DNA of 64,000 nt from Candidatus Nomurabacteria bacterium (GCA_023898465.1 CP060223.1:480001-544000), one strand, 5' to 3'; shown: positions 5,429 to 61,721, counted from the stretch's first letter. Notes: generated by a model from the letters alone, not told the origin. Program-made: numbers and translations.

Positions 5429-5447
5429 GCTCCTAGTTCCTTAATTA

Positions 5448-7299: not shown

Positions 7300-7731
7300 T
7301 TAATGCTGACGAAAGGTCCAAAATTTATTGGCAAAAAAATTCCAAAATAGCACAATGAGCACTGACACTATCTTTGCATAAATATCGTGCAATCCTACTA
7401 CGACAACAAAAAACCAAAGTCCTAATTCGGTTAGTACTGCGCCTACCGCACTCACAGCGACAAAGCGAGTGTATTGCCGACGAAAGGCTCTTTGACGATC
7501 ACGAAAAGTCCAGCGCTTATTTAAGGTAAAGCTTAAACTTACTGCGCTTAAAAATGCAACCGCGTTTGCTGCTAAAAAGGGAACGTGAAAAAAACGAGTG
7601 AGCGAAAAATAAATACTAAAGTCTAGGCAGGTATTCCCAAACCCAACAACACCAAACTTAATAAATTGCGCCAGGCCAGGCCGGCGCTCAATGAATGGGT
7701 GTTGGCGAATGTAGTTAACAAGCTGCTGCAT
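7300..7731 (-). CDS. GtrA-family small membrane protein (putative lipid-linked sugar translocase)
   Basis: 143 aa, 4 TM helices, FIKFGVVGFGNTCLDFSIYF GtrA-like N-terminus. Confidence 0.6.
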   Translation of the reverse strand: MQQLVNYIRQHPFIERRPGLAQFIKFGVVGFGNTCLDFSIYFSLTRFFHVPFLAANAVAFLSAVSLSFTLNKRWTFRDRQRAFRRQYTRFVAVSAVGAVLTELGLWFFVVVVGLHDIYAKIVSVLIVLFWNFFANKFWTFRQH

Positions 7732-17955: not shown

Positions 17956-20581
17956 CTATGCTTTACCATTAGCGAACCTTGGCCAAGGCCAAAGAGCACT
18001 ATGATACAAGTAATAAATCCCGTTGCGATAAGCGCAAAACCCACAGTAGACCCGCTCAAAATAAATACTCCATACCAAAGTGGGCTGACGAGACAATTCA
18101 CGGACCTGCTGTGCTGCTAATTCGGGGTTTGATGCGGTCGGCGGCAATGACTGCATATTAAAAGCACGAGCCGCAGTATTCTGTATCAAAAGCTTCACAT
18201 ACGCATTATAGCGCTCAATGTTAATCACATCATACTCATTAAAGACCGGTGAAAACTGTCGAGCAAAAACTTCTGCATCTTCCGCCCACCCGGAAAGCCA
18301 ACAAAGTCCCAACTGTACCCAAGACCGCGTCTCGCATGGTCGACTTACCGTCTTCAATAAGCTGACCTAGATATTGATGCGCAAGTGTTAAGCAGAGTCG
18401 ATACTTACGCGCTTCGGAAAGAATAGTTGCAATTGATGGCGTAATAAAATTTTGAAATTCATCAATGTACAGGTAAAAATCTTTGCGCTCTGTTTCAGGC
18501 AAAGCCGCCCGTGACATTGCGGCCATTTGAAGCTTGGTTACCAGGATAAGCCCAAGCAGATTAGAGTTCACTTCACCGGTCCGTCCCTTGGAGAGGTTCA
18601 CCAAGAGTATTTTTTGTTCATCCATTATTTTCCTAAAGTCAAACCCGGAGTGCGGTTGACCAATGATGTTGCGCATCATGCGGTTTTCTACAAAGCGACC
18701 GACTTTAGAAATAAGATAGCCAAGCATTTCGGACTTGTGGAAGTCTGAAGTCTGTGCCATTTCCTTTTCCCAAAAAGCCCGAACAACCGGATCTTGCACC
18801 TTACTCAACTTATATCGCTGGAAAGTCTTGTCAGTAAACATGCGTGGAATATCAACAATCGTTCCTGGTGCCTCGCGATCAGCCGCTAAAGTAAGCATAA
18901 CGTTACGCATATTATGCTCAAACATCGGGCCAATCATTTCTGGCGGGAAAAGCTTGTAGAAAATGGCAATCATTTCTTGTATAGCAAAGTCGATTTGCTC
19001 TTCTCCCTCAGCATCAAGCATATTCAAGCCAATGGGACGCTCAGTATCAGCCGGCTCAAACAATACCACATCCTTCATGCGTTCTTCTGGTATCGAGCCC
19101 AGTAAATGCTCAACTAAATCACCATGCGGATCAATCACGCAGACACCTTCACCGTTGCGAATATCCTGCTTGGCCATTTCCTGCATTTCAACCGATTTAC
19201 CTGTGCCGGTAATACCAATGATATAGGCATGACGGCGACGATCTTCTCGCGAAATACGTATGGGCGTGCGAGCGCCCCGATAGATATTTGTACCAAGTAA
19301 GAGACCTTCCTGTGGCACATTGACCGGTGGTGGCGCCTTACGAGCACCCAACCAAAGAATATTTGGAGTCTCAATCGTGGCTGAGGGCAGGTGATAAAGA
19401 CTGGCCAATTCCTCAGTATTTAACACATAGCGACGGCCCTCATTAAAACTACGATAAACAAAGTCCCGCACAAAACGAGTTTTAGAAAGGAGGGAGCGTT
19501 GTCGAAATCCATTACCTGATTCTGGTGAGGTGTATTGGGAAAAGGCATTCACCACGGCCTGATGAATCATGCGTGCTCGCGCTAGGGTTTGGGAGGCGGC
19601 AATGACACGTATATTCACATGAAAACCTGATTTAGAAGACTTTACCCCAATAGCCTCCACCTTACTCTGCTCAGCCGGCGTCATTTGATATGGAGTCATT
19701 TCCCGTTCCATCCGCTGCCGTCGATCAGCTTCACTTGTACCAGAGACGCTTGATTGCAAAGTACGGAAAGTGGCGCCCAGCACTGACATAGCACCTGAAT
19801 TACCTTGCCCAACCGGCTTACCATCCTGAATACGTCTGGCAATAGCATGTCCGCTCTTTTGCCAGCTCGTACCTGCCGGACGCAAGACCATTTGAATTGC
19901 CGCGCCTTCATTAGGGTCCAGCTTTGACATCACATTAGTTAATGCGTTCAGTGGATCAGACTCAAGTGTACGGTAGCTGCGTATTGGATAGGCGGAAGCT
20001 TTTGCGAGCGTCAAATAACTTCCCGCCACATAACCCTGCGGAGGGAAAATATTATAGTCAGGCACTTCCTCAATATGCGCCATGGGATATTGCGCTTGTA
20101 CTTGTGATTCGAGGAGCTGCTGCAAGTGTCTCGGTACGGCCATGTAAAACTTTATCAATCCCTTTTGCGCAACAATTTCAAACGCGAGATGATCGGTTCG
20201 GCCATAGAGAAAATTATACCAAGCGTTCGTAAGAATATTTGCGTGCTGTTCAGCCTTGATGCCAGCTAGGTTGGCATAGAGCGTTTCTGCCACGGAGAGG
20301 AGTTCGCGCGGATCACTTGGTTGATGTTCATCTTGCGCCGCCTCTTTAGGCACTGTTACGAGCAGTACTACATGCTCCAAAGCAACTGGCACACGATGCT
20401 TTGCTCGCACATACCAGCGAATTAACCAGAGGGCTAATACAACAACCAGCCCAAAAAGCACTATTGGCCATACTACTTGCACTATAGGTTGCTCAAAAAA
20501 ACTCTGGCTAATATCTTCAACCGAGGGGGTGGCTAAACTTCCACCTGGCCCGCCTATTTGTAATAATGCACCAAAAATCAT
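17956..20581 (-). pseudogene. Type IV secretion coupling-protein-like ATPase (TraD/TraG/VirD4-like DNA-binding-domain ATPase), interrupted by an apparent +1 frameshift near 18281-18292. Either a pseudogene or a sequencing indel.
   Basis: N-terminal TM helix; Walker A HAYIIGITGTGKS; Walker B FYLYIDEFQNF; LTLAHQYLGQL motif. The 780-aa frame ends ...LAFRVGGRCRS*, while the next frame continues ...(G)EDAEVFARQFSPVF... for 125 more residues (ORF 17956..18357). Skipping one nt in gggtgggcgga restores a continuous protein of about 875 aa. Confidence 0.6.
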
Positions 20582-23263: not shown

Positions 23264-23713
23264 CTACTGTCCGCGAACCGTGAAGTCCGGTCCGCCGTTG
23301 TTGTTGGTGCACACCGCGACGACCCAAGCGTACTTGCCCGTGAAACCGCGGACGGTTTCAACTTCGTAGATGCGCTCAGCCGTGATCGCCGGCACGTTGA
23401 TGGTGAAAGTACGAAACACACGATCACTGATCTGTGACTGATACACTTTGATAGTGTATCGCCCCTCGTTCAGGGTCATAGTCCCGTACTCATTGGGATG
23501 CACGGTCAGTCTTCGCGGCGGAGTACCGTCTTGCTCGTCCGCCGCTGCATGCCGAGTGATCTCGTACGACAAGGTGTAGTTCCAGTCGTTCGAGAAGATG
23601 CCTTCCGAACCTGCGAAATCCGGTCCCGTGAGCGTGAATGCACACCCAGAGAGGAGCGACGCTACGATGCCCAGAAGAGCAACGATAGCGAAGAAACGGT
23701 TGAACACCTGCAT
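23264..23713 (-). CDS. Lipoprotein (lipobox LLSGC), GC-rich gene
   Basis: MQVFNRFFAIVALLGIVASLLSGC signal with lipobox; local GC clearly higher (about 57%) than the surrounding genome. Confidence 0.5.
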   Translation of the reverse strand: MQVFNRFFAIVALLGIVASLLSGCAFTLTGPDFAGSEGIFSNDWNYTLSYEITRHAAADEQDGTPPRRLTVHPNEYGTMTLNEGRYTIKVYQSQISDRVFRTFTINVPAITAERIYEVETVRGFTGKYAWVVAVCTNNNGGPDFTVRGQ

Positions 23714-23719
23714 TGTTCA

Positions 23720-24142
23720 TTACCTCCCAATCACCACGCCAGCAGCGTAGCGATGGTTGTAGTAGCGGAAGCTCCGTCCTTGATATGGGACGAAGAACTT
23801 TCCGTCACGTGTCTTCTTCCCATCGACGTTGAAGGATGTCCAGAGATACTTGCCCTCCGGATACCACTTCACGAAAGTCGGACATGTTCCGTCCAACGTG
23901 AATTGGTCCAGAGGATTCCTGTCAGAATCGTAGACGATCACTCGTTGCGTGAAATCCCGAAGTGGACCAGTGTTGGCGAAGATGACTTCCCCGCCTCCAG
24001 TCGACTCCACCACCTCGTGTCCATGCGCGACAGGGTTGTCGCACACGAAAACTTCGTGACAGAAGCGAGCTGTCGGTCCGCAACCCGTGAGGAGGGTCAC
24101 GCCAGCAGTCAACAACATGATGACAAAGAGCGAGCGGTTCAT
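23720..24142 (-). CDS. Lipoprotein (lipobox LLTGC), GC-rich gene
   Basis: MNRSLFVIMLLTAGVTLLTGC signal; same GC-rich islet as the neighbour. Confidence 0.5.
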   Translation of the reverse strand: MNRSLFVIMLLTAGVTLLTGCGPTARFCHEVFVCDNPVAHGHEVVESTGGGEVIFANTGPLRDFTQRVIVYDSDRNPLDQFTLDGTCPTFVKWYPEGKYLWTSFNVDGKKTRDGKFFVPYQGRSFRYYNHRYAAGVVIGR

Positions 24143-24267: not shown

Positions 24268-24316
24268 TGCGAATACTATTGCCCATGCACTCCTCTACTT
24301 GCTACACTTCCCCTAC

Positions 24317-25693
24317 ATGGAACTCCAGCTATTCAACACACTGACACGACAGAAAGAAATATTTACTCAACCAGACCAGAGTCCGGTAAAAATGTATTCA
24401 TGCGGACCAACGGTGTATGGCTTCGCGCACATTGGTAATCTCCGCACCTATGTGTTTAGCGACCTCCTCCGCCGAACTCTTGAGTACAATGGTTTCAAAG
24501 TTGCCCAAGTCATGAACAGCACCGACGTTGGACATCTCACCGACGATGCTGATCAGGGAGAAGATAAAGTCGAGCAACAAGCCAAACGTGAAGCAAAAAG
24601 TGCGCTCGAGCTCACTCGTTCCTATGAGGAAGCCTTTCTTCATGATTTAGATGCCCTGCATATCGAACGCCCTACCCAATGGCTACGTGCGAGCGAACAC
24701 ATCCAAGAACAAATTGCCTTGATTCAACAACTTGAGGCAAAAGGGGTTACCTATCAGACTAGCGATGGAATTTATTATGACACCAGCACCTTCCCCCGCT
24801 ACGGCGAATTCGCCCGACTACATACGGCCGGACAACAGGAAGGCGCCCGCGTGCAAGTGAATACTGAGAAGCGTCATCCGACTGACTTTGCTCTGTGGAA
24901 GTTCAGTCCAGCTAACCAACAGCGCCAAATGGAATGGGGTTCTCCTTGGGGAGTTGGCTTCCCGGGCTGGCATCTAGAGTGTTCAGCTATGGTGATGAAA
25001 GCCTTTGGACCGACTGCTGATATTCACACCGGCGGTATTGATCATATTCCTGTCCACCATACGAATGAAATTGCCCAGAGCGAAGCAGTGACCGGCCAAG
25101 CGCTGGCCCGTTTCTGGCTGCATGGCGAATTCCTTATAATAGACGAGGGTCGTATGGGTAAATCTGAAGGAAATGCGCTTACCTTAAAAACACTGCAGGC
25201 AAAGGCCTTTGATCCTATCGCCTACCGCTTCTGGCTATTGCAAACTCATTATCGCACCAAGTTAAACTTTACCTGGGAAGCTCTCGAGGCAGCCCAGCGA
25301 GGTTGGCAAAACATGACTGCCGAAATAGAGCGTTGGGGCGCTATAGAGCCGGGACAAAGGAATGAAGATTTTGAGCAGCGCTTCCACGAAGCCATCAACA
25401 ATGATTTAGATCTGCCAAAATCTATGGCTATAACTTGGGAGTTGTTGCGCTCGGAAATACCTACCAATGATAAACTGGCCACCCTCTTAGGTTTTGATCG
25501 AGTTCTTGGACTAGGTATTGAAAGCATCCGCCCAATTACGCTGCCTGAGGAATTAAACACCTTATTACAAGAGCGCGAAACAGCCAGACAGGCAAAGGAC
25601 TGGGAAAAGGCGGATACGCTTCGTCAGCAACTTCTCGATGCTGGGTATGTAGTTGAGGATCGACCAAGCGGCGCTTTTGTCCGCCGAGCCTAA
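24317..25693 (+). CDS. cysS: Cysteine--tRNA ligase
   Basis: MYSCGPTVYGFAHIGNLRTY (HIGH-class motif), KMSKS-like RMGKSEGN, CysRS Zn ligand region; start probably MELQLFNTLTRQKE. Confidence 0.9.
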   Translation: MELQLFNTLTRQKEIFTQPDQSPVKMYSCGPTVYGFAHIGNLRTYVFSDLLRRTLEYNGFKVAQVMNSTDVGHLTDDADQGEDKVEQQAKREAKSALELTRSYEEAFLHDLDALHIERPTQWLRASEHIQEQIALIQQLEAKGVTYQTSDGIYYDTSTFPRYGEFARLHTAGQQEGARVQVNTEKRHPTDFALWKFSPANQQRQMEWGSPWGVGFPGWHLECSAMVMKAFGPTADIHTGGIDHIPVHHTNEIAQSEAVTGQALARFWLHGEFLIIDEGRMGKSEGNALTLKTLQAKAFDPIAYRFWLLQTHYRTKLNFTWEALEAAQRGWQNMTAEIERWGAIEPGQRNEDFEQRFHEAINNDLDLPKSMAITWELLRSEIPTNDKLATLLGFDRVLGLGIESIRPITLPEELNTLLQERETARQAKDWEKADTLRQQLLDAGYVVEDRPSGAFVRRA

Positions 25694-26068
25694 TTACACT
25701 GAGACAAAGCTTTTTGCATAGGTGATGGCTTCATCCATGCCGCCTTCGTATTTCACCACGTACTGATCAGCCACTTCCCTACCTGCTTGCATATCCACGC
25801 GTGAACATAGGGAGCTAAGGAGTATTAAGGGGATGTGCTTTGTACGCTGGTCAGCTTTAATGCAACGAGCAGAGGCAATTCCATTCATCACTGGCATAAC
25901 AATATCTGAAATTATCAGGTCCGGCTTTTCATTCATAACTATAGATACCGGATCAGCACTTGGGTTAGTAAAGTGTCGCACCTCAAAGCCAGCTTGGCGC
26001 AGACGCTGGCCAAACTTTTCTGCAAAAGCTGGGTCATCTTCAAAATGAAGTACTCGAGGTTTAGACAC
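25694..26068 (-). CDS. Stand-alone CheY-like receiver domain protein
   Basis: HFEDDPAF acidic pair, DLIISDIVMP phospho-acceptor Asp, conserved Ser/Thr and Lys positions; 124 aa. Confidence 0.7.
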   Translation of the reverse strand: MSKPRVLHFEDDPAFAEKFGQRLRQAGFEVRHFTNPSADPVSIVMNEKPDLIISDIVMPVMNGIASARCIKADQRTKHIPLILLSSLCSRVDMQAGREVADQYVVKYEGGMDEAITYAKSFVSV

Positions 26069-26147
26069 AGAAGGAGTATAGCAAACTTTCTATATACTTA
26101 TGCTATAGTAAGACTGCTTAAATAATTGGATCATTTACGAGGGGAAA

Positions 26148-26834
26148 ATGAAAATACTACTCATCGAAGACAACCCAGAAATCCGTGAGTTTCTCAAGCC
26201 GGCTTTAGAAGCGGAGGCTTTTTCAGTTGATATTGCTGAGAATGGTAACATTGGTGCAAAAATGTCATGGGATCACACCTATGACTTGATTATTTTGGAC
26301 TACATGCTGCCGGATAAAAATGGCTGGGAAGTATGCCAAGAAATAAGAAATCGTGGAAATAAGGTACCTATTCTCGCACTTTCGGTGGTAAATGATACCG
26401 AAAAGAAAGTAGAATTTCTCAACTCAGGCGCTGATGACTATCTCACGAAACCTTTTTCCTTTAATGAATTATTAGCCAGAATTAGGGCACTTTTGCGTCG
26501 ACCCGATACTTTTGTGCACAATACACTGGCCGTTGGTGACCTTGAAATGGATCTCATTCAGCAAACAGTACGATGTGGGGGCCAAGAAGTATATCTAACT
26601 CGCAAAGAGTTTGAATTATTGGAGTATTTAATGCGAAACCCAGATCGTCCTTTATCCCGAGGAATGATTATTGAGCATGTCTGGGATATGGCAATTAATA
26701 CTTTTTCAAACACAATAGAAACGCATATTTTCAATTTGCGTCGGAAGCTCAATGAAAAAGCTTCGCGACAAATAATCGAAACACTCCCGGGTCGAGGTTA
26801 TAAAATAAGTTCAGTTTCCAAAATCACTTCTTAA
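26148..26834 (+). CDS. OmpR-family response regulator (receiver plus winged-helix)
   Basis: MKILLIEDNPEIREF, DLIILDYMLPDKNGWEV, C-terminal LTRKEFELLEYLMRNPDRPLSRGMIIEHVWD trans_reg_C. Confidence 0.85.
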   Translation: MKILLIEDNPEIREFLKPALEAEAFSVDIAENGNIGAKMSWDHTYDLIILDYMLPDKNGWEVCQEIRNRGNKVPILALSVVNDTEKKVEFLNSGADDYLTKPFSFNELLARIRALLRRPDTFVHNTLAVGDLEMDLIQQTVRCGGQEVYLTRKEFELLEYLMRNPDRPLSRGMIIEHVWDMAINTFSNTIETHIFNLRRKLNEKASRQIIETLPGRGYKISSVSKITS

Positions 26835-27051
26835 GATAAAGTTAAGCAATTCTTTATCTCACCTGCTCTATAGTACATGTGCGCCTTGCTGGTCGACATT
26901 GCGCAGTAGTACAAATTTAATAGGAATAAGCCACATGAGCACCTTACTGGAGCAAATGCTCAACCAAGTTGAGACGCGGGGGGAATTGCAGAGCACCGAA
27001 ATTGCTCTGCAGCAAAGTGAGTTCCAGCCCTGGTCTCCCTGATAGCGCAAA

Positions 27052-28506
27052 ATGAACGCTCCGACGCCTCAGTTTGGAAACGGCTTTTTTTCAAAACCGA
27101 ACTACCCGCGTAAGGGCGTTCATTTTTTTCGTCTGCTTTTTGCACTTAAATCCATTGATGAGGATAAGCGTCGTAAGGAATTTATTCTCCTTATTATTCT
27201 GACGACCTCCATACTTATTGTCCTAGCGCTGAATCTCAGCGTACTTATTCGATTACTGCAAAGCCCTGACTTCACCGATCTGCGAGTTGCCGTCCCTTTC
27301 ATCATACTTCTCGCCTTTGTTTTTCTCTTCTGGTTAATGAAAAAACAACACATTACGATTACATCGTACATTGTCGTTGGAGTATATTTCTTCAGTATAA
27401 GCTTTGCTGCTTATACTTGGGGTATTGATTTGCCGGCCGCACTACTGAGTTTTGGTGTCCTCCTTTTTATTTCCGGAATGCTTATTTCAGCTCGCTTTGG
27501 TATTGGCTTGGCTATTGCCACTGCGGCTATCTTGATTTATTTTGCGTATCTGGAAGAGCACGGTATACACACACCGGACCGAGCCTGGATACAACAAGGG
27601 ATACGAGTAAGCGATGCCATAAATTTTTCTATCATACTGCTCTTTTTAACTGTGATCTCATGGCTGGCTAACTCCCAAATCAATAAATCTTTGCAACGCG
27701 CTCGATATTCTGAGGAAGCCCTGAAACAAGAGAAAGACCTACTAGAAATTACGGTACAAAATCGCACAAAGGCTTTGCGAAAAATTGAGCTACAAAAAAT
27801 ATCCGAGCTGTCTCAATTTGCTGAATTTGGCCGACTAGCAGCAGGACTGTTTCATGATCTCATTAATCCACTTAATGGCCTGCTCTTAAATATCCATCGC
27901 CTCTAACAAAGTGATGAAGCAAAGCAAGGAGACACACAAGAACGTATACAGCAAGCCGTAAAAGTAGGAGCTAAATTACAAGAATTTATTCAAAGGATTA
28001 AAAAGCAAATTAGTCGGGAACAAAGCCATGAAATATTTTTCCCAGCAAATGAGATTAGCGATGTTATCGAGCTACTGCGATACCAAAGCACTGAAGCAAA
28101 GGTGCATATCGCCTGCGTGACCACTAGAGAAATTTCCATTTATGGCTCCCCTCTCCTGTTTAGACAGCTCATACTCAATCTCCTAACCAACGCGATTGAG
28201 GCGTATCAAGGAACTGAGCAAAAAGATAAAACTGTACTCATCACACTTCATGCAGATAATGCAAATAATGAACTGAGCGTCCGAGATCATGGAGTTGGTA
28301 TCCCGAAAGATAAGCTCTATAAAATATTTGAGCCATTTTATACGACCAAGCCTAGTGATACTGGGATAGGCATTGGACTATCCACCGTTAAAAGTATTGT
28401 TGAGCAAGAATTGGGAGGAAGTATTAAGGTGCAAAGCGGCGAATATACAACCTTTACCATTCGTTGGCCTCAAAACTCTTCACCGACGCGACATGGAGAA
28501 CACTAA
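27052..28506 (+). pseudogene. Sensor histidine kinase (multi-TM sensor, HisKA H-box, HATPase_c) interrupted by a single in-frame TAA at 27904-27906
   Basis: H-box LFHDLINPLNGL immediately before the stop. The same frame continues QSDEAKQ... to N-box LILNLLTNAIEA, G1 DHGVGIP and G2 GIGIGLSTV. The ORF track splits it into 27052..27906 and 28102..28506. Confidence 0.7.
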
Positions 28507-30439
28507 TGCGCAGATCATCAAACAAGGACTACGTTACCTACAAAACATACAAACAAAAGAAGGGGGCTTCCTCAGTCAATCAAGCCCACTAAGCGAAAAA
28601 AATCCCAGGGGAATTCCGCGCCTCACGAGTTTTTTTACTTCACATGTACTTTTTTGCCTTGCTCAACTTCGCGAGTACACTGAAACAGAACTCATCATTA
28701 AGAAAGCCGAGCATTTTTTACGTTCACAAATTAACGCGCAGGGTTCATTTAATTACTGGAATAGAACAAGTACAGAGGCTACACAAATCCCCTATCCGGA
28801 TGACCTCGATGATACGATATGTGGATGGAATGCGCTCCATCTACTTCACACCGACGGTCTAAGCGGCGCTGAGTTGGCCAAGCTCACTCAACTCCTTATT
28901 CATCAGGAAGAGCAACCCGGCGGACCCTACCGCACCTGGCTACTGAATTCTCACTCCCCTGATGGTGAATGGTCAGATACTGATTTGGCAGTCAATGCAC
29001 ATATCGCCCGCCTTTTACGTTACCTCGGAGTAAAAACACCGCGCCTAGATGCTTTTTTAGAAAATGCATTGCGACAGGAAGTTCTCCTCTCGCGATATTA
29101 TCCTAGCTCCTTCCCAATCCTCTATGCGCTCTCCTATCGTAGCCCTCAAAAACATTCAAGCTTTATTCTACGTCATATCAAGAAGCTCCAACTCCCTGAC
29201 GGCACCTGGGGTAATCCATTACATAACGCTTTAGCTATTGAAACGCTGAGGGAGCTTGGCATTCGAGAAAATGAATTCGATAGCACTCGTGCGCAACAGT
29301 CCTTACGGGAAGCTCAAGAAAAAGGAGCTTGGCCAGCCATTGCTTATTGTATTGATCCCTGCTTCGAGGGCGAACAAATGATTGCTCGATCGAGCGCCCT
29401 TACAACCGCATACTGCCTACTTGCACTACATCAAAAAGAGAAAAAATCTCCTGTAACTATCGCAAAGGCAAATGAAAGCGAGGCGCGCTTTCTGCATGAC
29501 GTCCATCAAATTCTTTCTTATAAAATTACTAGTCTTGCGCCAGAGTTACAAGATCAGGGTAAGCAAACAATACTGCACTTTATTGAAAAAAAAGAAAACG
29601 CACATATCGCACTCCTCTCTTTACTAAGTTACCGAGCACTTTCCTCAAATATACTTAGATCCGACTATGAGTATCTGCTACGTCTCGCAATAAATAATAT
29701 CTATGGATGGATTGCCTATGGCATTTACGATCACATTCTCGATGAAAAAGATCTCATTGAGAAGCTACCTCTCGCCAATGTTTTACTCCGCACTCTTCAA
29801 TCAGAATACACTAAGCTTTTGCAATATATCCCGGGAGGTATTACTTATCTCGAAAACACTCTTAATGCCATAGACGCGGCTAATGCATGGGAAATTGACC
29901 ATTGCCGACTACACGTTAATGAAAAAAAACTTAAGCTACCCCAACACTTGCCTGCATTTAAGGATCTTTCGCAGCTAGCACAAAAAAGCTTTGGACATGC
30001 ACTACCAGCAATAACGGTATTTGCGCTCCACGGCTATAGCTTAGAAGAAGCTCCCCTTCAACATTTGCAAAACTTTTTTAAACACTTCCTCATAGCACGT
30101 CAGTTAAACGATGATGCACATGACTGGCTTACTGACTTAACAAAAGGAAGAATCACGCCAGCCAACCTGCGGGTGATTAAAAAAATATCAACTAAAGAAA
30201 TTAACTTTCAAGAGGATCTTACAAAACTAAAAAAAATGTATTGGGAAGAATGTATCAATGATATTAGTCAAGAAATTCTTCAGCATATTGCTGAAGCAAA
30301 AAATGAGCTTGGACAAATTAATATAGCAAATCCTGAGTACCTCAGCTCACTTCTTCACTCCTCGGAAACTGCAGCTAAAGAGGCAAAAAAACAAAGTAAG
30401 CAAATACTAGGCTTTCTAAAAAACTTTCATCCAGCCTAG
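28493..30439 (+). CDS. Prenyltransferase/squalene-oxidase-repeat (alpha/alpha-toroid, terpene-cyclase-like) protein with a DxDDT motif, plus a C-terminal helical domain carrying a DDxxD-like motif. Start MENTNAQ overlaps the HK stop by 14 nt.
   Basis: Repeated Q..(D/E)GG(F/W) units: QTKEGGFLSQ, NAQGSFNYWN, EQPGGPYRTW, LPDGTWGNPLH, EKGAWPAIAYC. PYPDDLDDTICGWNAL resembles the class II terpene cyclase DxDDTA acid motif. The C-terminus has LIARQLNDDAHDWLTD. Confidence 0.45.
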   Translation: MENTNAQIIKQGLRYLQNIQTKEGGFLSQSSPLSEKNPRGIPRLTSFFTSHVLFCLAQLREYTETELIIKKAEHFLRSQINAQGSFNYWNRTSTEATQIPYPDDLDDTICGWNALHLLHTDGLSGAELAKLTQLLIHQEEQPGGPYRTWLLNSHSPDGEWSDTDLAVNAHIARLLRYLGVKTPRLDAFLENALRQEVLLSRYYPSSFPILYALSYRSPQKHSSFILRHIKKLQLPDGTWGNPLHNALAIETLRELGIRENEFDSTRAQQSLREAQEKGAWPAIAYCIDPCFEGEQMIARSSALTTAYCLLALHQKEKKSPVTIAKANESEARFLHDVHQILSYKITSLAPELQDQGKQTILHFIEKKENAHIALLSLLSYRALSSNILRSDYEYLLRLAINNIYGWIAYGIYDHILDEKDLIEKLPLANVLLRTLQSEYTKLLQYIPGGITYLENTLNAIDAANAWEIDHCRLHVNEKKLKLPQHLPAFKDLSQLAQKSFGHALPAITVFALHGYSLEEAPLQHLQNFFKHFLIARQLNDDAHDWLTDLTKGRITPANLRVIKKISTKEINFQEDLTKLKKMYWEECINDISQEILQHIAEAKNELGQINIANPEYLSSLLHSSETAAKEAKKQSKQILGFLKNFHPA

Positions 30440-30463
30440 AACTGTGAAAACTTCCTGGCGCTC

Positions 30464-31108
30464 TTAATTTTTCACGCTAATCCCGCCAAACATAGCCGTA
30501 CCCTGAATTGTCAGAGTCTTGCTCGCATTTGGATCGGGTTGTGATTTATCCTCTGAGCCACCTAAGATCGGTGTTACATTCATCACCACCCGCACATTTT
30601 TTGGCACAATAATATCAATACCAGCAAAACTGGCTGATGCGTTCAGGACTGATTGCTCAGCCAAATCTGCTTCGCGAAAATCTAACTTAATGCCACCGAA
30701 CCAGGCTGAGCTTTGTCCTTCCTTAAAATGACCAGTCACTTTGCGTTCTATACCGCTAAATACCACGCTTGCATCAGCTGACCCTTGATCCTCCTTCATC
30801 CTTCCATCCCATTGCTTTCCCATGACGATCCGGGCACCAAAGACAATGATAATGATTGGCCAGAATAAGGTCCAGGCAGATTTCGCAAAGAGATCGAGTT
30901 GATCAATAAACAATAATAAGCCAACTAAAATAATGAGGGCCGGACCAAACCACATGCGACGATTATTATTCAATGCGTAAAAACCTACTGCGATTATTGC
31001 CAAGGACCACCAAAAATTTGGTAGATTGTCTGCCCAAGCAAGATCAAGCTGCTGCAGGAGAAAACCCAAGCCTAATAAAATCAAGAAAAAACCTATAAGT
31101 TTGCGCAT
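30464..31108 (-). CDS. LiaF/YvqF-like membrane protein (DUF2154-type cell-envelope stress-response domain)
   Basis: N-terminal 4 TM helices plus a C-terminal beta-rich domain FAGIDIIVPKNVRVVMNVTPILGGSEDKS...TLTIQGTAMFGGISVKN. Confidence 0.55.
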   Translation of the reverse strand: MRKLIGFFLILLGLGFLLQQLDLAWADNLPNFWWSLAIIAVGFYALNNNRRMWFGPALIILVGLLLFIDQLDLFAKSAWTLFWPIIIIVFGARIVMGKQWDGRMKEDQGSADASVVFSGIERKVTGHFKEGQSSAWFGGIKLDFREADLAEQSVLNASASFAGIDIIVPKNVRVVMNVTPILGGSEDKSQPDPNASKTLTIQGTAMFGGISVKN

Positions 31109-31162
31109 ACTACATCCATTAAGATTCTGATACTATAAGCATACACCTCTCAGTACAGCTGT

Positions 31163-31825
31163 CTATAGGGTATCAAGATGCCGGTTCTGTCGAAACCATT
31201 GCTTCTGTAGCTGGTAATTCGGCAAAATACTGGCGACCCGCTGCCAAAATTTCTTGCTGTGATTATGCTCAAGTAGATGGGCTAACTCATGTACGAGCAC
31301 ATAATCAATTGCTTCGGAGGGTAATAAGATAAGACGCCAGCTCAAAGCGATATTTCCACCCAGACTGCAGGAACCCCAGCGTGTTTTAGCGCTGCTCAAA
31401 CGAAGTTTTTTATACTTTAAGCCGGTCCGCTCGCTCCATTCCTGAATTCGTGAAAAAAGATATTCTCGCGCCTCTCTCTTGTACCATTCGTGCACTAGTT
31501 TTTTTGCCTGAAGTCTTTTTTGTGTTGGTAGAAGCAAAACATCATCTCGGAGAGTTGCTTTTTTTATTGAGGAAAAATGTAGGGTAAATATTTTACCTTT
31601 ATAGTTAAAACGCTCCCCTTCTTGATATTGTTTTACTTTTCTCGGTCCACCGTTCTTTCTTATCCGTTGGAGATGCTGCTCAATCCAGGTCGACTTCTGT
31701 CGTAGGAGTTCTTCGATTTTTTCTACCGGGAATTGAAGAGGAGCTCGGATCAGCAATTGCGCTTCGGGCGTAATCAATACTGCCACACTTCTTCGGCGTG
31801 ACCGAATAAGGCGATACGTATGCAT
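31163..31825 (-). CDS. YgjP/DUF45-family metal-dependent hydrolase (WLM/SprT-like HExxH)
   Basis: YVLVHELAHLLEHNHSKKFW motif. Confidence 0.65.
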   Translation of the reverse strand: MHTYRLIRSRRRSVAVLITPEAQLLIRAPLQFPVEKIEELLRQKSTWIEQHLQRIRKNGGPRKVKQYQEGERFNYKGKIFTLHFSSIKKATLRDDVLLLPTQKRLQAKKLVHEWYKREAREYLFSRIQEWSERTGLKYKKLRLSSAKTRWGSCSLGGNIALSWRLILLPSEAIDYVLVHELAHLLEHNHSKKFWQRVASILPNYQLQKQWFRQNRHLDTL

Positions 31826-32567: not shown

Positions 32568-32813
32568 TTATGAAATATCAATTTCAGCTTGGTAACCCGC
32601 TTCGCGAACCGCTTGAATAAGCTGGTCAGCCTTTACCTCATCACCGTGCGTAACCTCGGTGCGTGCTTTCGCATAATTAGTTTTTGAAGAATCAACACCA
32701 GGCAAATCCTCAATACTATCATCAATGGTCATGCTACATGAAGTACAATGCATACCACTAATTTTTAGAAGGGTCTTTTGCCTATCGCTTTGTTTTTTAC
32801 GTTGAAAAAACAT
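32568..32813 (-). CDS. copZ: Heavy-metal-associated (HMA) copper chaperone
   Basis: GMHCTSC metal-binding motif; 81 aa. Confidence 0.8.
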   Translation of the reverse strand: MFFQRKKQSDRQKTLLKISGMHCTSCSMTIDDSIEDLPGVDSSKTNYAKARTEVTHGDEVKADQLIQAVREAGYQAEIDIS

Positions 32814-32829
32814 AATTGGATATTGTGAA

Positions 32830-33876
32830 TTAAATAACTTCCATCACGCCTGTATACATACCCATAGAACATGAATATGTATATCGGCCCGGTTGCGTTG
32901 GAGTAAATTGAAAACTTTGTCGGTCAGTGGGACGCAAAAAAGTGTCAATACCAAATTGTCGAAAAGTAAAAGCAACCGCACAAGAATATACGTCATTACT
33001 CTGCAATATCAACTCCACTGGCTTATTCTTTTCAACCGCAAAATATCGGGGCGAGTACCCTTGACCCAACACGTTAATGGTTACTCGCTGCACACCGTTA
33101 GTAAGTACCACTTCATCACTAACAGCCTTTGGTGTGCTTGTGTTCTGAAATTTTGCAATAATTTTTTCATACGTAATTGGTGCATCATACACATTAAGGA
33201 TCCCGTTGAAGCTGATAAGCGACAAGACAATCAAAATAGCAGCGGCAGTTTTTTGAAACCATCCATGCATCGTATCTGAGAGCTTCGCGGTCATGACGCC
33301 AAGTAAGGTAAAAATTGGTGAAGTACCAAGCACAAAGAAAAACATAATAAGGGCTCCAGCTATAGGACTGCCACTAGTAACTGCCACCACTTCCATTGCC
33401 TGAGTAACGCCGCAAGGGATAAAGACGGTCAAGACCCCTAATACTGCGGGGGCAAATAAAGTATCGCTCTTACTTGATTTCTTCACAAAGCGCTGCAGCC
33501 AACGCGGTGGCTGAAATGCTAAGAAGCGAAAGATTGGATGCACGTTTAATAAGTTCATTGCTGTAGCAAACATAAACAACGCTGCAGCAAGTTGAAAAGC
33601 GATACGCACATTTAATCCTATCGCTAACACTGAACCAAGCCAGCCAAGCAAAAAACCAAAGGCGGTGTGTACAATTAATTTCGCTAGTAAAAAAATACCT
33701 ACTGGCCAAATATCTGTTCCGCGGATTCGTGCATCGCTAGATTTTAGTGATGTTTTTCCGTTTTCAGATCGTTCCTTCTGATTAGCTATCACGCCTGCCA
33801 ACAACCCCCCTTGGACAGCTAGGCAGGTTAAGCCACCGGTAGTTAAGCCTGCTAAGAAAAAAACCCAATAATTCAT
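32830..33876 (-). CDS. Polytopic membrane protein (TauE/DsbD-like core) fused to a C-terminal cupredoxin-like domain; putative copper handling
   Basis: Eight or so TM helices, then a soluble beta domain ...[17 protein letters not shown] with cupredoxin-like Cys/Met spacing; sits between copA and copZ. Confidence 0.5.
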
Positions 33877-36104
33877 ATGTGTGATCGAAACGTTTTTAAT
33901 CGTAAGGCATTAAGCACAACTGAAACACTTGAAAAGGCCATTGCAGCGCCTGCCCAAATTGGATTGATAGTAATTCCCCAAATCGGCGCTAATGCTCCCA
34001 TGGCAACGGGTATGAGAAGAACATTATAACCAAAAGCCCAAGCAAGATTTTGCCAAATATTCTTCATAGTTGCTCGAGAAAGCGCAAGAGTCACTGGAAT
34101 TAACCGTAAGTCTGGACGAAGTAACACAACTCCAGCGGTCGCAATAGCAACATCAGTTCCCTGCCCCATTGCAATACTTAGATCCGCCGCTGCCAAGGCA
34201 GGCGCGTCGTTAATTCCATCCCCAATCATTGCGACGCCTTTTTTCTGCTGCTGCAGCTCTTTTATTCGCTGCTCTTTTTCTTGTGGAAGCACCTGTCCGA
34301 TAACTTGCGAAAGTTTAAGCTCACGCTGCACGTGCTGCGCTGCTTCTCTAGTATCACCAGTGAGCATTATGGTCTGTATGCCCTGATGATTTAAGGCGGC
34401 AATTACGCTGGCGGATTCCTCACGTATCGTATCAGCAATACTAAAGGAGACGAGGGCTTCATGATTGTCGGCCACATATACACGAGACATATTCACTGGC
34501 ATGAATTGAGCCTGGTCTGCATCGATTTGGATATTCTCTTGAGCCAACAGTGAGGCACTACCAATATTCATTTGACCGATAGTATCCTTAGCCCGAACTC
34601 CTTTTCCGGGCACATCAATTATTTCAGGCGCTGTTTCTGCGCTAGGTATTCCTTTGTCATTGATATACTGCGCAATAGCTTTTGCTAAAGGATGATTTGA
34701 GCGTTCTTCAATTGTCCGGACACGGCCAAGTAACTCTTGCTGCTCCTGGACGGAAAAAGTACGCATCATTTGTATATCTTGTACACGGGGCTTGCCTTCC
34801 GTTAAGGTGCCAGTTTTATCAAACACAATGGTCTGCACACGTCTCCCCAATTCAAGCGCTTCAGCATTTTTTATAAGTATCCCAAGCTCTGAACCCTTAC
34901 CAATGCCGACCATAATTGAAGTGGGAGTGGCTAAGCCGAGCGCGCAGGGACAAGCAATAATAAGCACACTCACCATGCTTACAAGTGCGTGTGCCCAAAC
35001 TGGATCTGGTCCAAAAAATAACCAAAGTCCAAAAGTGAGCAATGAAAGAGCGATAACAATTGGCACGAAATATGCTGAGATCTTGTCAGCTAAATTCTGT
35101 ACCGGGGGTCGAGATCCTTGCGCTTCTTCAACTAAGCGTACGATTTGTGCCAGCATAGTTTCATCACCCACTCGTCTTGCTTCCATCTCAAAAGCACCGC
35201 TAGTATTCATAGTTGCGCCAATTACCTGGTCTCCTGCCTTTTTCTCTACTGGCAAGCCTTCCCCAGTCACCATGCTTTCGTCTACCGCAGAGGATCCAGA
35301 CACAATATTCCCATCAACAGGAACTTTTTCACCTGGCTTCACTAAAATACGGTCTCCTACACGCACGTCAGTAAGGGGAAGATCCTGCCAAGTTTTTTTT
35401 TGAAATACATGCGCTATTTTTGCCTCTAGCTTCAACAAACGCTTCATTGCTGTAGCTGCCTGACCTTTTGCTCGCAACTCGAGAAATTTACCCAGTAACA
35501 CTAATGTAATTACCGTAGCTGAAGTTTCAAAGTACGCTAGCTGACTAATACCTAATGCCGCTAATTGATTTTCGTAAACTATTGAGAATGCTGAGGAGGC
35601 ATAGGCTACGCTAGTTCCTAAGGCGATAAGCGTATCCATATTGGCCGTGCGATTTTTCAGCGCAGACCAAGCGCTCAGGTAATAGTTTTTTCCAGCCCAA
35701 AACTGTACCGGGGTGGCAAGTATCCACATCAACCATGACTGACGCAGCCAATCAGGCGCTCCTGGCACCATCGCGCCAATAAGCAATAGTACAGTGAGTG
35801 GGAAAGAAACAAACAATCTCTGTCTCAACTGACGCAACTCTTCGACTCGTTCCTTTTCCGTAAGATCGCCGTGATCATGTACGCCTATGTGCGCTTTATA
35901 ACCCAACTTTGCAACGGTTTGCCCTATTTCATACTCTGGAGTTGCATGAGGGTCGAAGCTAACTGCTGCTTGATGATTTCCATAATTTACCGTTGCCTCT
36001 TTTACACCTGGAAGTTTCTTTAGACGACGTTGGATATTTGCCGCACAGCTTGCGCAATGCATGCCAGACACATGAAAATTGATCTGTTGGACATTATTTG
36101 GCAT
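33873..36104 (-). CDS. copA: Copper-translocating P1B-type ATPase (start at the internal Met MPNNVQQ)
   Basis: N-terminal [18 protein letters not shown] motif [20 protein letters not shown] phosphorylation site, [10 protein letters not shown] hinge. Confidence 0.9.
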
Positions 36105-36615
36105 ATTTTCCTGGATTTTTTTGAAAAGCCTTTTTACATCCACTCGCGCAAAAATAATATTTCTTCCCCTGATATTGCATGGCCGCGCCGGCCGTACTCG
36201 GAGAGACACGCATGTGACATACAGGGTCATGCACGATTGGCATAAGATCCTTCATTGTCCTACTGAATTCATCAGGTTTTTTATCGCCCTGTTGAACAAC
36301 AATAATGTCGCGAATAAGTTGACTCGCCTTAGCAAAATTCGGATGAGCTAAATGGTATCGAAGACGCTTTCCCAGCCGATGATAACTTACCGCTCCAGCA
36401 TCACGAAGTATTTTAAGATGCTGACTGAGATTTGCTTGTGGCAAACCAAGCATGTCTTGCATTTCCTCAACCGTTGCTGGGCCTTCTTTTAGTAAATGTA
36501 AAACCTCCAAACGGCGCGGATGTGCAAGCGCTTTTAAAAGCTTGGCGTGGAGTTTAAAAACTTGTTCATACATATTCGCTATTTCGAATATATATACTTC
36601 AGAAAAAACTGTCAA
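36094..36615 (-). CDS. ArsR/SmtB-family metalloregulator fused to a C-terminal YHS/TRASH metal-binding domain
   Basis: [48 protein letters not shown]; C-terminus VCHMRV...[12 protein letters not shown]. Confidence 0.75.
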
Positions 36616-46222: not shown

Positions 46223-46541
46223 CCCCTGTTGAAGCTTGCCGCACCCAGCGCTGCTCAATATAGAGCACTCGCCACCACCATCGCCCTAAGAAATACCCAC
46301 CAATCGCTCCAAGTAGTAACAAGCCAATTTGAATGTATGGTGGAAGCGCACATCCCCAGGTCCAATGTATAACCTGTCCATTTTTCTCAGCCCAGCTTAA
46401 ATACCACTGCTCAATTCCTAAATGTAACAGCAAACTTAACAGCACGCCGAACACAGTAGCGCTAATGAGATAAAGTGCATGTTTGAACGGGGTTGCTTTA
46501 AGTGGTCCGCGATGAAACATATTTAGAAAAGATTTAACCAA
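46203..46541 (-). CDS. Small membrane protein (112 aa)
   Basis: Two or three TM helices; overlaps neighbours by a few nt on both sides (operon-like). Confidence 0.4.
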   Translation of the reverse strand: MVKSFLNMFHRGPLKATPFKHALYLISATVFGVLLSLLLHLGIEQWYLSWAEKNGQVIHWTWGCALPPYIQIGLLLLGAIGGYFLGRWWWRVLYIEQRWVRQASTGDYEEKS

Positions 46542-58886: not shown

Positions 58887-58963
58887 TCTTTACTTTTCTT
58901 GTAGAATGCGATAAGTATTGTACAGATTTTGGATAGGTCGCACATTAAAATGGAGGTAATCGG

Positions 58964-59563: not shown

Positions 59564-59621
59564 GAGGATCTCCCAGGCCCTGAGGTAAACACTTCAGGGC
59601 CTTTTTTATTTTACGTATGAC

Positions 59622-59649
59622 TTGACAAAAGCCCTCTTTTTAGTATACT
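59622..59649 (+). promoter_or_regulatory. Near-consensus sigma-70 promoter TTGACA-16 nt-TATACT upstream of the CBM/T9SS-CTD gene
   Basis: Seen in sequence, about 70 nt upstream of the GTG start, which has GAGGAGG 8 nt upstream. Confidence 0.5.
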
Positions 59650-59718
59650 GGCCGGTCTAGAAATAGTAGTAGCTATCGAACGGAACGTATATTCACAAAG
59701 GGAAGAGGAGGCTCAAAC

Positions 59719-61161: not shown

Positions 61162-61193
61162 AGGCTGGAACCATGCGTCAACACATCTACAAC

Positions 61194-61231
61194 AGCGCCT
61201 GAAGAGATTTACTCTCTCAGGCGCTTTTTTG
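61194..61231 (+). terminator. Intrinsic terminator GCGCCTGA...TCAGGCGC followed by T6
   Basis: Seen in sequence. Confidence 0.7.
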
Positions 61232-61287
61232 TATATGAAAAGCCGCCAAAGTTCCGAAGAAGCTTGGCGGCGAGAGACGAGGAGGGA

Positions 61288-61611: not shown

Positions 61612-61721
61612 AATAGTATTCCTCGTATGTACCGACCTCAAAAGGTCGAGTTTGAGTCAATGTACAAAACGTATCTGGGCAATATAATAGCACATTTCGT
61701 TTATTTTGTCAATATATAAAG

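Follow-up and report, generated by a model that had tools for sequence, protein, structure and literature searches.

A conserved regulator-peptide-kinase-enzyme cassette in Patescibacteria that resembles ComQXPA-type pheromone loci

Introduction

The locus at positions 25694-31108 of a 64-kb stretch of DNA from a Candidatus Nomurabacteria bacterium (the whole stretch is called the window below) raises the question of why a protein resembling a terpene cyclase should be encoded directly behind a sensor kinase. Patescibacteria (CPR) are ultra-small, have reduced genomes and are mostly episymbiotic. The initial annotation of the locus listed a stand-alone receiver, an OmpR-type regulator, a kinase with an in-frame stop codon, a 648-aa protein with cyclase-like repeats and a LiaF-like protein, and suggested a cyclase regulated by the two-component system.

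Results and discussion

Layout and conservation of the locus

All of the listed genes were found, although the LiaF-like gene, which had been described as divergent, is convergent with (tail-to-tail to) the 648-aa gene. The features are as follows.

25694-26068, minus strand: receiver-only protein (Pfam Response_reg, 1e-13)
26148-26834, plus strand: OmpR-family response regulator, 228 aa (Pfam Response_reg, 1.1e-27; Trans_reg_C, 2.2e-25)
26935-27042, plus strand: mini-gene for a putative 35-aa precursor peptide, MSTLLEQMLNQVETRGELQSTEIALQQSEFQPWSP (peptide-family HMM; position between regulator and kinase)
27052-27906, plus strand: histidine kinase, N-terminal fragment, 284 aa (from translation; 5-6 TM segments at aa 44-206 and DHp helix 1)
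27907-28506, plus strand: histidine kinase, C-terminal fragment, 199 codons in the same frame (Pfam HATPase_c, 4.9e-25)
28493-29440, plus strand: N-terminal domain of the 648-aa protein (aa 1-316), single-barrel (monodomain-type) class II terpene cyclase, activity putative (single barrel, DxDD)
29465-30439, plus strand: C-terminal domain of the 648-aa protein (aa 325-648), all-α, trans-isoprenyl-diphosphate-synthase (trans-IDS)-like putative prenyltransferase (fold, Asp-rich motifs)
30464-31108, strand opposite to the 648-aa gene, convergent: LiaF-like gene (Pfam LiaF-TM, 1.6e-15)

In the window and in its relatives the OmpR-type regulator, the peptide, the 5-6-TM kinase and the cyclase/prenyltransferase follow each other in this order on one strand. 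Neighbours were counted over 82 related loci and upstream genes over the 68 non-redundant loci with enough upstream DNA. The kinase gene lies directly 5′ of the enzyme gene at 81/82 loci; the regulator gene was detected at 70/82 and is directly upstream on the same strand at 58/68. Peptide, kinase and enzyme occur together at 67/68 loci, and all four genes in order at 58/68. The association of the 648-aa protein with a two-component system, as first noted, is thus strongly conserved. The cassette is widespread in Patescibacteria, with 305 species genomes and, at a 50% identity threshold, no fewer than 1594 clusters, and the conserved neighbours around the enzyme gene in the 82 loci are cassette genes only.

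The LiaF-like protein and the stand-alone receiver do not belong to the cassette and are its neighbours only incidentally. Both flank the operon in the window, and this arrangement could be taken for an envelope-stress module in which a LiaF-like protein, a two-component system and an extra receiver control a membrane-remodelling terpene cyclase. Neither gene is found in any of 86 related loci, however, and the other flanking genes are not conserved either, so there is no LiaFSR-type module. The LiaF-like gene is also not co-oriented with the kinase and regulator genes, and the regulator is of the OmpR type, whereas LiaR is of the NarL type. We regard such a module as highly improbable.

The peptide gene

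The peptide gene ends 9 nt upstream of the kinase start and encodes a single tryptophan, Trp33 (27031-27033). This 35-aa gene between the regulator and the kinase had been overlooked in the initial annotation. At 67 of the 68 related loci with sufficient sequence upstream, a 34-40-aa peptide is encoded at the same site. An HMM derived from 18 such peptides and searched against 32 171 six-frame segments (1.13 Mb; E < 0.01) gave 79 matches, every one of them on the plus strand directly upstream of a kinase gene. The 75 unique peptides are 34-40 aa in length; a lone Trp, located 1-6 residues before the C-terminus, occurs in 73 of them, and in 55 Pro directly precedes the Trp (PW). They share an N-terminal motif, LLxKxLTDKxAR, and a Shine-Dalgarno core is present at 47 of the 75 genes (19.5 expected). 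No Pfam or NCBIfam model was found for the family. The peptide of the window is its most divergent member, with a degenerate leader motif and a weak profile match of 13.6 bits, compared with at least 34 bits for all of the others.

The 648-aa enzyme

The 648-aa open reading frame (28493-30439) begins with ATGGAGAACACTAA and overlaps the kinase stop by 14 nt, as the initial annotation had stated; the two genes also overlap in two related loci (L004 and L005).

Its N-terminal domain is a class II terpene cyclase of the MstE/drimenol synthase type, with a putative protonation-initiated cyclization activity. It has a single α/α-barrel fold of about 300-350 residues, and the DxDD/DxDTT general-acid motif is at the equivalent position. 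The motif Tyr101-PDDLDDT108 (28793-28816) contains the putative general acid, Asp106, which aligns with Asp333 of AsDMS, the residue that is mutated in PDB entry 9m7d. Across 56 homologues with 27-37% identity Pro102, Asp104 and Asp106 of PYPDDLDDT (aa 100-108) are invariant and Asp103, Asp107 and Thr108 are conserved in at least 90%; the class-II-like motif reported earlier is therefore both present and conserved. About five of the Q..(D/E)GG(F/W) repeats that had been described can be read, but all are degenerate and none is perfect. The best sequence relative of the domain is an FPP-cyclizing drimenol synthase (E = 2e-18).

The protein was also compared with squalene-hopene cyclases and with the thioester domains of A2M, and belongs to neither group. 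Squalene-hopene and oxidosqualene cyclases have a two-barrel (βγ) architecture and only one barrel is present here; the scores were 15 bits for TIGR01507 (cutoff 431) and 18 bits for SQHop_cyclase_C (cutoff 26). Squalene-hopene cyclase has been reported to be absent from CPR (PMC7306690). For A2M/complement, TED_complement reached 21.4 bits (cutoff 22) over aa 5-85 only, there is no CGEQ in the 648-aa sequence and the complement matches in Foldseek had TM scores of 0.26-0.28.

The C-terminal half had been noted as helical with an NDDAHD motif; the motif is there, but the identity of the domain had been missed. It has the all-α trans-IDS fold and is structurally closest to genuine synthases. 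The first Asp-rich motif (DDxxD) appears as the FARM-like Asp413-His-Ile-Leu-Asp417 (29729-29743), in which Asp413 and Asp417 are invariant among the 56 homologues, and the second as Gln537-Leu-Asn-Asp540-Asp541-Ala-His-Asp544-Trp-x-x-Asp548 (30101-30136), with a Gln one turn before it. Within NDDAHD (aa 539-544) Asp540 and Asp544 are invariant and Asp541 and His543 are conserved in at least 90%; the whole Gln537-x-x-Asp540-Asp541-x-x-Asp544 pattern is invariant or nearly so and Asp548 is invariant. The gene adjoins that of a small peptide with a near-C-terminal Trp, as is the case for trans-IDS-like peptide Trp prenyltransferases.

These Asp and Gln motifs are common to canonical synthases, and are thus necessary for a peptide prenyltransferase but do not discriminate it from a true synthase. 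The 648-aa protein could therefore be a bifunctional terpenoid synthase with free isoprenoids as its substrates, in which the C-terminal domain is a divergent prenyl-diphosphate synthase or a class-I-type ionizing domain, the N-terminal domain cyclizes the product of this domain to a drimenyl- or copalyl-type compound (such as a lipid used in membranes or in signalling) that the two-component system regulates or responds to, and the mini-gene encodes an unrelated small regulatory protein. The retention of both Asp-rich motifs with canonical FQ-like Gln spacing, the structural closeness to synthases and the relationship to drimenol synthase all fit this reading. Against it, no member tested matched Pfam polyprenyl_synt and no synthase was found among the PDB profile matches, even at E < 10. 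The usual IPP/diphosphate-binding motifs of trans-IDS are the GGKR, RRG and KT elements, and none of these is visible in the consensus of the enzyme family. A search for polyprenyl synthase genes showed a separate canonical polyprenyl synthetase (PF00348, 2.6e-49) beside or within the operon at 17/82 loci, with which a second synthase would be redundant, and the one-Trp peptide that accompanies the enzyme at 67/68 loci would be left unexplained. We consider a synthase of free isoprenoids to be unlikely.

It is still less likely that the protein is a noncatalytic, ligand-binding accessory of the kinase (for example a cytoplasmic sensor of isoprenoids or lipid carriers) in a three-component sensory system, with the peptide as an MgrB/SafA-like modulator. 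The tight translational coupling seen in the gene overlaps is compatible with such a role, as is the lack of a conserved peptidase or exporter in the neighbourhoods of the 82 loci. The invariant residues are exactly the catalytic ones, however (Asp104/Asp106, Asp413/Asp417 and Asp540/Asp544/Asp548), which argues for enzymatic activity, and the peptides are mostly hydrophilic or amphipathic and not membrane-spanning.

The regulator and upstream repeats

The receiver domain of the regulator has an intact acidic pocket (Asp51 and Lys101), and the output domain behind it is a winged helix. In the relatives, TTAAT repeats with 11-bp spacing are ∼100-fold enriched 5′ of the regulator gene and are also found 5′ of the peptide and enzyme genes. 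The TTTAAT-N5-TTTAAT direct repeats in front of their own operon are probably the binding site of the regulator in many relatives, which would allow autoinduction. The TTTAAT repeat was not found in the window and is also missing in about half of the relatives.

The interrupted kinase

The kinase has tightly spaced TM segments with no large loop (modal count 5 from the hydropathy of 80 homologues) and a HisKA-like H-box, FHDLxNPL, with His268 at 27853-27855. Translation of the frame 27052-28506 confirmed the nonsense codon noticed at the outset: the sole in-frame stop is TAA 27904-27906, 16 codons past the H-box His and before HATPase_c. It falls in the DHp loop at a variable column where the homologues have Lys, Asn, Glu, Gln or Ala, and is a single-base step from Lys, Glu or Gln codons. 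The C-terminal fragment continues with DHp helix 2 and HATPase_c (about 28150-28473) without further disruption. Both halves align to uninterrupted kinases of ∼450-490 aa in about 80 related loci, and are continuous in every homologue but one (L086). As no other gene in the 64-kb window is interrupted, nothing suggests that TAA is recoded.

The nonsense codon is real at the assembly level, as the identical TAA is present in an independent Logan assembly of run SRR12358676, although this and the MAG could have been built from the same reads. An error in the consensus or the base calling, with a kinase that is intact in the organism, would be compatible with any of the readings of the enzyme. 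The possibly shared reads, the single-base nature of the event and the undisrupted remaining 199 codons with all of the catalytic boxes present would be expected from such an error. The agreement of the two assemblies speaks against it, as does the lack of a further broken gene that would hint at a poor consensus; in addition, the peptide gene next to the kinase is unusually degenerate and the TTTAAT repeats of many relatives are missing, both of which fit relaxed selection. An error is thus improbable. Given the nonsense codon and the degenerate peptide leader, the cassette in this Nomurabacteria genome is most likely signal-blind or decaying, with the regulator and the maturase intact.

Proposed function of the cassette

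The conserved trans-IDS-like domain, the Trp peptide and the two-component link together suggest that one operon holds a signal-making enzyme, the peptide on which it would act and the pair of proteins that would sense the product. The link between cyclase and two-component system that was originally proposed stands, but its logic does not: the enzyme is grouped with a putative peptide substrate and a sensing pair rather than simply being the target of regulation. Our preferred reading, to which we assign a probability of roughly 60%, is that the locus is a ComQXPA-like autoregulated peptide-pheromone cassette of CPR/Patescibacteria with a fused cyclase-prenyltransferase maturase resembling the 'PC' fusions. 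Everything beyond the presence and conservation of the cassette genes, including chemistry, expression and export, we infer.

In this proposed pheromone cassette the C-terminal domain would use a prenyl diphosphate to attach a C15-C20 prenyl group to the single conserved Trp near the C-terminus of the peptide, a step modelled on ComQ, PalQ, StheQ and the P domain of ChrPC. The N-terminal domain would cyclize the isoprenoid with Asp106 of DxDD as the proton donor, either after the transfer or on the diphosphate before it. The lipophilic peptide-terpenoid would probably lose its leader and be exported. The 5-6-TM kinase would then detect it, either inside the membrane or at it, and phosphorylate the OmpR-type regulator.

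Whether a self-contained, autoregulated circuit for signalling between cells is widespread in CPR, with a short ribosomal peptide bearing a cyclized terpenoid on Trp as the pheromone, is in our estimate evenly balanced. If so, this would be a previously unrecognized phylum-wide language for quorum sensing or for host or kin sensing, the peptide-terpenoids would form a very large and untapped natural-product family, and the window would hold a natural signal-blind variant.

Comparison with known systems

The ComQXPA system of Bacillus consists of the isoprenyl transferase ComQ, the pre-peptide ComX, the kinase ComP and the regulator ComA (PMC4008528, PMC5331326). Both systems have four adjacent genes on one strand (at 58/68 loci here), a trans-IDS-fold enzyme beside a small peptide with a Trp close to its C-terminus (the site of modification in ComX and the presumed one here), and a polytopic membrane kinase with a cognate response regulator. 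The CPR cassette differs in its order (regulator-peptide-kinase-enzyme), its OmpR-type rather than NarL-type regulator and its HisKA-like H-box; the peptide is shorter than ComX (34-40 aa) with its own leader motif. In the enzyme the second motif is a full DDxxD, and a class II cyclase domain is present in addition. In place of a ComP-type kinase and a NarL/LuxR-type ComA there are a non-ComP-like kinase and an OmpR-type regulator, which make the cassette an analogue and not an orthologue of ComQXPA. The hosts also differ: the CPR cassette is found in Patescibacteria, whereas a 2014 census found ComQXPA loci in Firmicutes only.

Enzymes of the ComQ family and other trans-IDS-like enzymes act on small peptides encoded alongside, prenylating a Trp that is C-terminal or nearly so, and the gene cluster of PalQ includes a histidine kinase (PMC10853753); StheQ/StheX of Sphaerobacter are a trans-IDS-like Trp prenyltransferase and its neighbouring peptide (bioRxiv 10.64898/2026.08.29.745113). 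PalP-PalX-PalQ of Paenibacillus alvei and StheQ/StheX share with the CPR cassette an isoprenoid-synthase-fold enzyme beside its peptide, a Trp at or next to the C-terminus and a conserved Gln that precedes the second Asp motif by one helical turn. PalX, which has an NHLP leader and whose Trp is strictly C-terminal, and StheX, with 69 aa, are unlike the CPR peptide, and PalQ and StheQ have no cyclase domain and no OmpR-type regulator described with them. ComQ and StheQ also have a pseudo-SARM (NDxxx), whereas in the CPR enzyme Q-x-x-DDxxD is complete, as it is in the canonical synthases that elongate prenyl chains.

The closest kin of the cyclase domain are the monodomain class II cyclases MstE (PDB entries 6sbb and 6sbd), the drimenol synthase AsDMS (9mhs and 9m7d), 8pak/8paj and the prenylcyclase 6ij1. 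The CPR domain differs in being fused to a trans-IDS-like domain instead of forming a protein by itself or having a HAD phosphatase as its fusion partner, and in its presumably peptide-bound substrate. The precursors of the PC maturases are reportedly of the proteusin, Nif11 or lasso type, while the putative precursor here, 35 aa in length, belongs to an undescribed family, and the cassette is embedded in a two-component system. In the part of PMC13290415 that covers them (citing Hubrich et al., 2024, Chem 10:3224), ChrPC and NctPC are fused prenyltransferase-cyclase maturases with an MstE-like C domain that prenylate Trp and then cyclize the prenyl group. By that description, and not by sequence, they resemble the CPR enzyme in combining a prenyltransferase (trans-IDS-like in ChrPC) and an MstE-like monodomain class II cyclase in one polypeptide; a Trp in a ribosomal peptide as the substrate and cyclization after the transfer would be further shared features if our reading of the cassette is right. 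By analogy, the cassette is best read as a variant of the known ComQXPA/PC-type systems.

Organization of the locus

The window derives from a MAG of Candidatus Nomurabacteria (CPR/Patescibacteria). The genes of the locus are listed below; all but the peptide gene were assigned by ORF listing, translation and Pfam.

Genes of the locus (window coordinates, strand, description)
24299–25693, +, CysRS
25694–26068, −, receiver-only protein
26148–26834, +, OmpR-type regulator
26935–27042, +, putative peptide gene; stop 9 nt ahead of the kinase start
27052–28506, +, histidine-kinase frame with one TAA (27904–27906)
28493–30439, +, 648-residue ORF, from an ATG; its first 14 nt are shared with the end of the kinase frame
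30464–31108, −, LiaF-TM protein, convergent
31163–31825, −, YgjP-like peptidase

The 648-residue protein is 100% identical to NCBI H6760_02495, which lies on a 1.08 Mb contig. What the initial annotation had read from the sequence was reproduced throughout, except that the LiaF-like gene, described as divergent, is convergent and that the QxxDGG repeats are rather degenerate. A promoter and terminator consensus scan of 25600–31300 gave counts that were not above shuffled expectation.

Just past the LiaF/YgjP-side end of the locus is a copper-handling cluster (32568–36230, −) comprising a small HMA metallochaperone (32568–32813, −), a DsbD_2/cupredoxin membrane protein (32830–33876, −) and a P-type ATPase with an HMA domain (33873–36230, −), the last with a 4 nt overlap with the preceding gene. 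Elsewhere in the window, an 1806-residue protein (46523–51943, −) with LVIVD repeats and fibronectin-III and purple-acid-phosphatase N-terminal-type domains is probably a large surface protein, and a TrwB/VirD4-like coupling-protein ATPase (18239–20581, −) and a 931-residue subtilase with FG-GAP repeats (7731–10526, −) represent secretion or surface functions, which may bear on an episymbiotic lifestyle. Paired small proteins of 149 and 140 residues (23264–23713, −, and 23720–24142, −) have lipoprotein-like N-termini (…LLSGC and …LLTGC); a 221-residue ORF overlapping both genes on the opposite strand is probably spurious. The G+C content rises to 0.51–0.53 at 58001–64000 compared with about 0.42–0.48 over most of the window; this segment, with genes for a carbohydrate-binding protein and a Y-family polymerase among others, may be of foreign origin or under different constraints.

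Conserved neighbourhood and peptide gene

The gene content and order of the cassette are conserved in related CPR/Patescibacteria loci (denoted by L-numbers, with coordinates counted within each locus). Of 68 non-redundant loci for which 2.7 kb or more of upstream sequence was available, 67 have the peptide, kinase and enzyme genes together and 58 have the order regulator–peptide–kinase–enzyme, which bears out in relatives the pairing of the enzyme with a two-component system. Clustering of the flanking ORFs found no conserved genes other than those of the cassette. The LiaF-like and receiver-only proteins, which the initial annotation had listed in the locus, lie beside the cassette in none of 86 related loci. 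The YgjP-like peptidase, DUF1801 and OmdA had no matches beside the cassette in related loci either, and all five were rejected as parts of the system.

Next in frequency among the neighbours comes a canonical polyprenyl synthetase (PF00348, E = 2.6e-49; L074 3486–4658), present at 17 of 82 loci. It is immediately downstream on the + strand in 12 loci (L074, L071, L022, L025, L049, L017, L030, L023, L044, L057, L037 and L038), downstream on the − strand in L018 and L055, and within the operon in L010, L021 and L078, where it separates the regulator gene from the peptide gene; it is probably a dedicated supplier of the prenyl donor. A tblastn search with the L074 synthase found no polyprenyl synthase in the 64 kb window. 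In six loci (for example L035 8494–10344) a gene a few kilobases downstream encodes an ABC exporter in which the membrane and ATPase domains are fused (PF00664 and PF00005); this protein is a possible exporter of the peptide, although it is not generally conserved.

The ORF of 34–38 residues between the regulator and the kinase was first seen in the gene calls of distant homologous loci, and 26935–27042 is its counterpart in the window. With an HMM of 18 such peptides, a search of 88 loci (1.13 Mb; 32,171 segments over all six frames) gave 79 matches at E < 0.01, every one of which is on the + strand directly 5′ of the kinase. The 75 unique peptides (34–40 residues) have an N-terminal M-K-x-L-x-x-K-I-L-T-D-K-x-A-R motif, then a variable stretch and then one Trp near the end. 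Exactly one Trp is present in 73 of the 75, with 1–6 residues C-terminal to it, and Pro directly precedes the Trp in 55. A strong Shine–Dalgarno sequence stands before 47 of the 75 (19.5 expected). No Pfam or NCBIfam model matched the peptide above its cut-off.

The 648-residue enzyme

A single-sequence search returned 126 full-length homologues with 28–38% identity, all of which are annotated as ‘hypothetical’. A profile of 56 homologues searched against 1.84 billion representatives gave 1594 clusters at E ≤ 1e-30, and a pattern scan, run on a single genome of each species, found relatives in 305 species. Among the matches listed, the lineage names are almost all those of Patescibacteria (Saccharibacteria, Microgenomates groups, Parcubacteria groups and Doudnabacteria), with a few obviously mislabelled MAGs. 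Many cassette-bearing public records carry MAG titles such as ‘uncultured Gammaproteobacteria’, ‘Vitreimonas sp.’, ‘Methylomirabilota’ or ‘Bacillota’ (L014, L019, L024, L025, L027, L033, L034, L039, L043, L044, L080 and others); their peptides and enzymes group with those of Saccharibacteria or Microgenomates, and these names thus look mislabelled or mis-binned.

The AlphaFold2 model is of high confidence (pLDDT 91.1, pTM 0.83) and has two domains connected by a low-confidence linker (residues 317–324). The N-terminal domain gives a profile match to the cyclase domain of the bacterial drimenol synthase AsDMS (E = 2e-18), with D106 of PYPDDLDDT aligned to the catalytic D333, in agreement with the initial description of a terpene-cyclase-like DxDDT protein. 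Squalene–hopene cyclase (SHC) was considered and rejected: the domain is a single barrel and is thus not an SHC, and it scores far below the TIGR and Pfam cut-offs. One paper reports that no SHC was found in CPR (PMC7306690). By sequence, the C-terminal domain matches no Pfam family. The residues that do not vary in it are D413 and D417, which belong to a first motif of the DDxxD type, and Q537, D540, D544, W545 and D548, within ‘ARQLNDDAHDWxxD’. No Pfam or NCBIfam family was above cut-off for the enzyme as a whole; PF28380 is listed for three homologues.

The main rival to a role in peptide modification is that the enzyme is a bifunctional synthase releasing a free terpenoid. Such an activity would suit the complete Q-x-x-DDxxD motif, which is absent from the peptide prenyltransferases ComQ and StheQ, and a cyclase domain whose closest relative acts on FPP; however, the enzyme has no sequence similarity to synthases, a separate synthase gene adjoins it in 17 loci and a peptide with an invariant Trp is encoded alongside.

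The kinase and its stop codon

The kinase frame contains exactly one in-frame TAA, as the initial annotation had stated; frame translation finds it in the MAG, and an identical sequence over this region is present in the Logan assembly of SRR12358676 (described as independent, although the two may share reads). Each half aligns with single continuous kinases from about 80 homologous loci, which have 5–6 closely spaced hydrophobic segments without a large extracytoplasmic loop. The TAA lies 16 codons past the H-box His. Homologues have K, N, E, Q or A at this column, which is part of a variable loop, and a single substitution in AAA, GAA or CAA accounts for the stop. The 199 codons past it are undisrupted and include the HATPase_c domain (Pfam). 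The first in-frame start after the TAA is a GTG at 28102, the product of which would be the catalytic domain only, so a functional split kinase is unlikely. Recoding or readthrough is not indicated either: a six-frame scan for stops with a long open segment on either side identified the kinase as the sole split gene in 64 kb, the other flagged stops being ordinary gene boundaries with immediate restarts. The kinase of another locus, L086 (4313–5792), is disrupted too, by a frameshift that leaves overlapping ORFs (4313–5128 and 5061–5792); this may represent recurrent sensor loss or an assembly error.

In this copy of the cassette the kinase is truncated. The peptide retains its position, its length, an N-terminal MS-LL and a P-W-S-P end; its leader motif has LNQVETR in place of LTDKxAR, its Shine–Dalgarno sequence is weak and it scores 13.6 bits against ≥34 for each of the other 74 peptides (a gap that is somewhat inflated, as the profile was made from those 74). 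The phospho-acceptor residues of the regulator are present. The enzyme keeps all of its invariant residues, with His at the second position of the first Asp-rich motif, where it is tolerated. This fits a recently signal-blind and possibly decaying copy; with a best identity of 38% and no close database relatives, lineage-specific divergence is not separable from decay.

A candidate operator

In 27 of 60 loci the regulator gene is preceded, at a distance of 20–60 nt, by pairs of TTAAT exactly 11 bp apart (TTTAAT-N5-TTTAAT), with a density there of 2.67 per kb compared with 0.026 per kb per strand elsewhere (about 100-fold enrichment). Additional copies are grouped a short way 5′ of the enzyme gene (L017 5932/5957, L022 5950/5975, L033 5944, L039 5922, L044 5932 and L073 5936) and of the peptide gene. 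The direct repeats sometimes have three or four copies; examples are L004 (about 3700–3740), L014 (about 540–575) and L043 (about 3600–3660). They look like candidate operators, arranged as OmpR-family binding sites are expected to be, and suggest autoregulation. The window has no copy of the TTTAAT repeat.

Discussion

CPR/Patescibacteria represent a large share of bacterial diversity and are mostly uncultured; to our knowledge, peptide quorum sensing is not known in them. Full-text literature searches returned nothing tying this group to ComQ/ComX, to terpene cyclases, to the prenylation of peptides or to pheromones of peptide type; the primary report on fused prenyltransferase–cyclase (PC) maturases may already include these proteins in a network figure. 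In annotation, the enzyme and the peptide gene are hypothetical or uncalled, and neither has a Pfam or NCBIfam model. We regard this operon, ordinary at first sight, as representing a large type of signalling and RiPP cassette that extends across CPR and lacks annotation. For natural-product chemistry it would add at least 1594 clusters (50% identity) of maturases that join a cyclase to a prenyltransferase and whose substrates are very short. The cassette can be tested directly, being small and widely distributed and having a readable input (peptide and maturase), a sensor, a regulator and a candidate operator in many lineages: cultivable Saccharibacteria offer a route to signalling tests and heterologous expression a route to peptide modification.

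Isoprenoid-synthase-fold enzymes encoded beside small peptides prenylate Trp at or near the peptide C-terminus (PMC4008528, PMC5331326, PMC10853753, bioRxiv 10.64898/2026.08.29.745113). Trp prenylation is known for ComQ/ComX of the Bacillus comQXPA quorum-sensing locus (PMC4008528, PMC5331326), for PalQ/PalX, encoded beside the kinase PalP (PMC10853753), and for StheQ/StheX (bioRxiv 10.64898/2026.08.29.745113). The fused PC maturases ChrPC and NctPC, whose cyclase domain is MstE-like, first prenylate Trp and afterwards cyclise the attached prenyl group, a chemistry first reported only in 2024 (Hubrich et al., as summarised in PMC13290415). For the CPR cassette, the genes present, their order and conservation, the fold and the conserved motifs are observations. 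By analogy, the Trp of the CPR peptide would be prenylated and the prenyl group cyclised, either after transfer or beforehand on the diphosphate; leader removal, export and sensing by the kinase would follow, with the regulator acting back on the cassette. As the cassette joins a PC-type enzyme and its Trp peptide with a two-component operon, we propose a ComQXPA-like peptide–terpenoid signalling circuit, probably autoinducing, that resembles comQXPA and the PC maturases combined.
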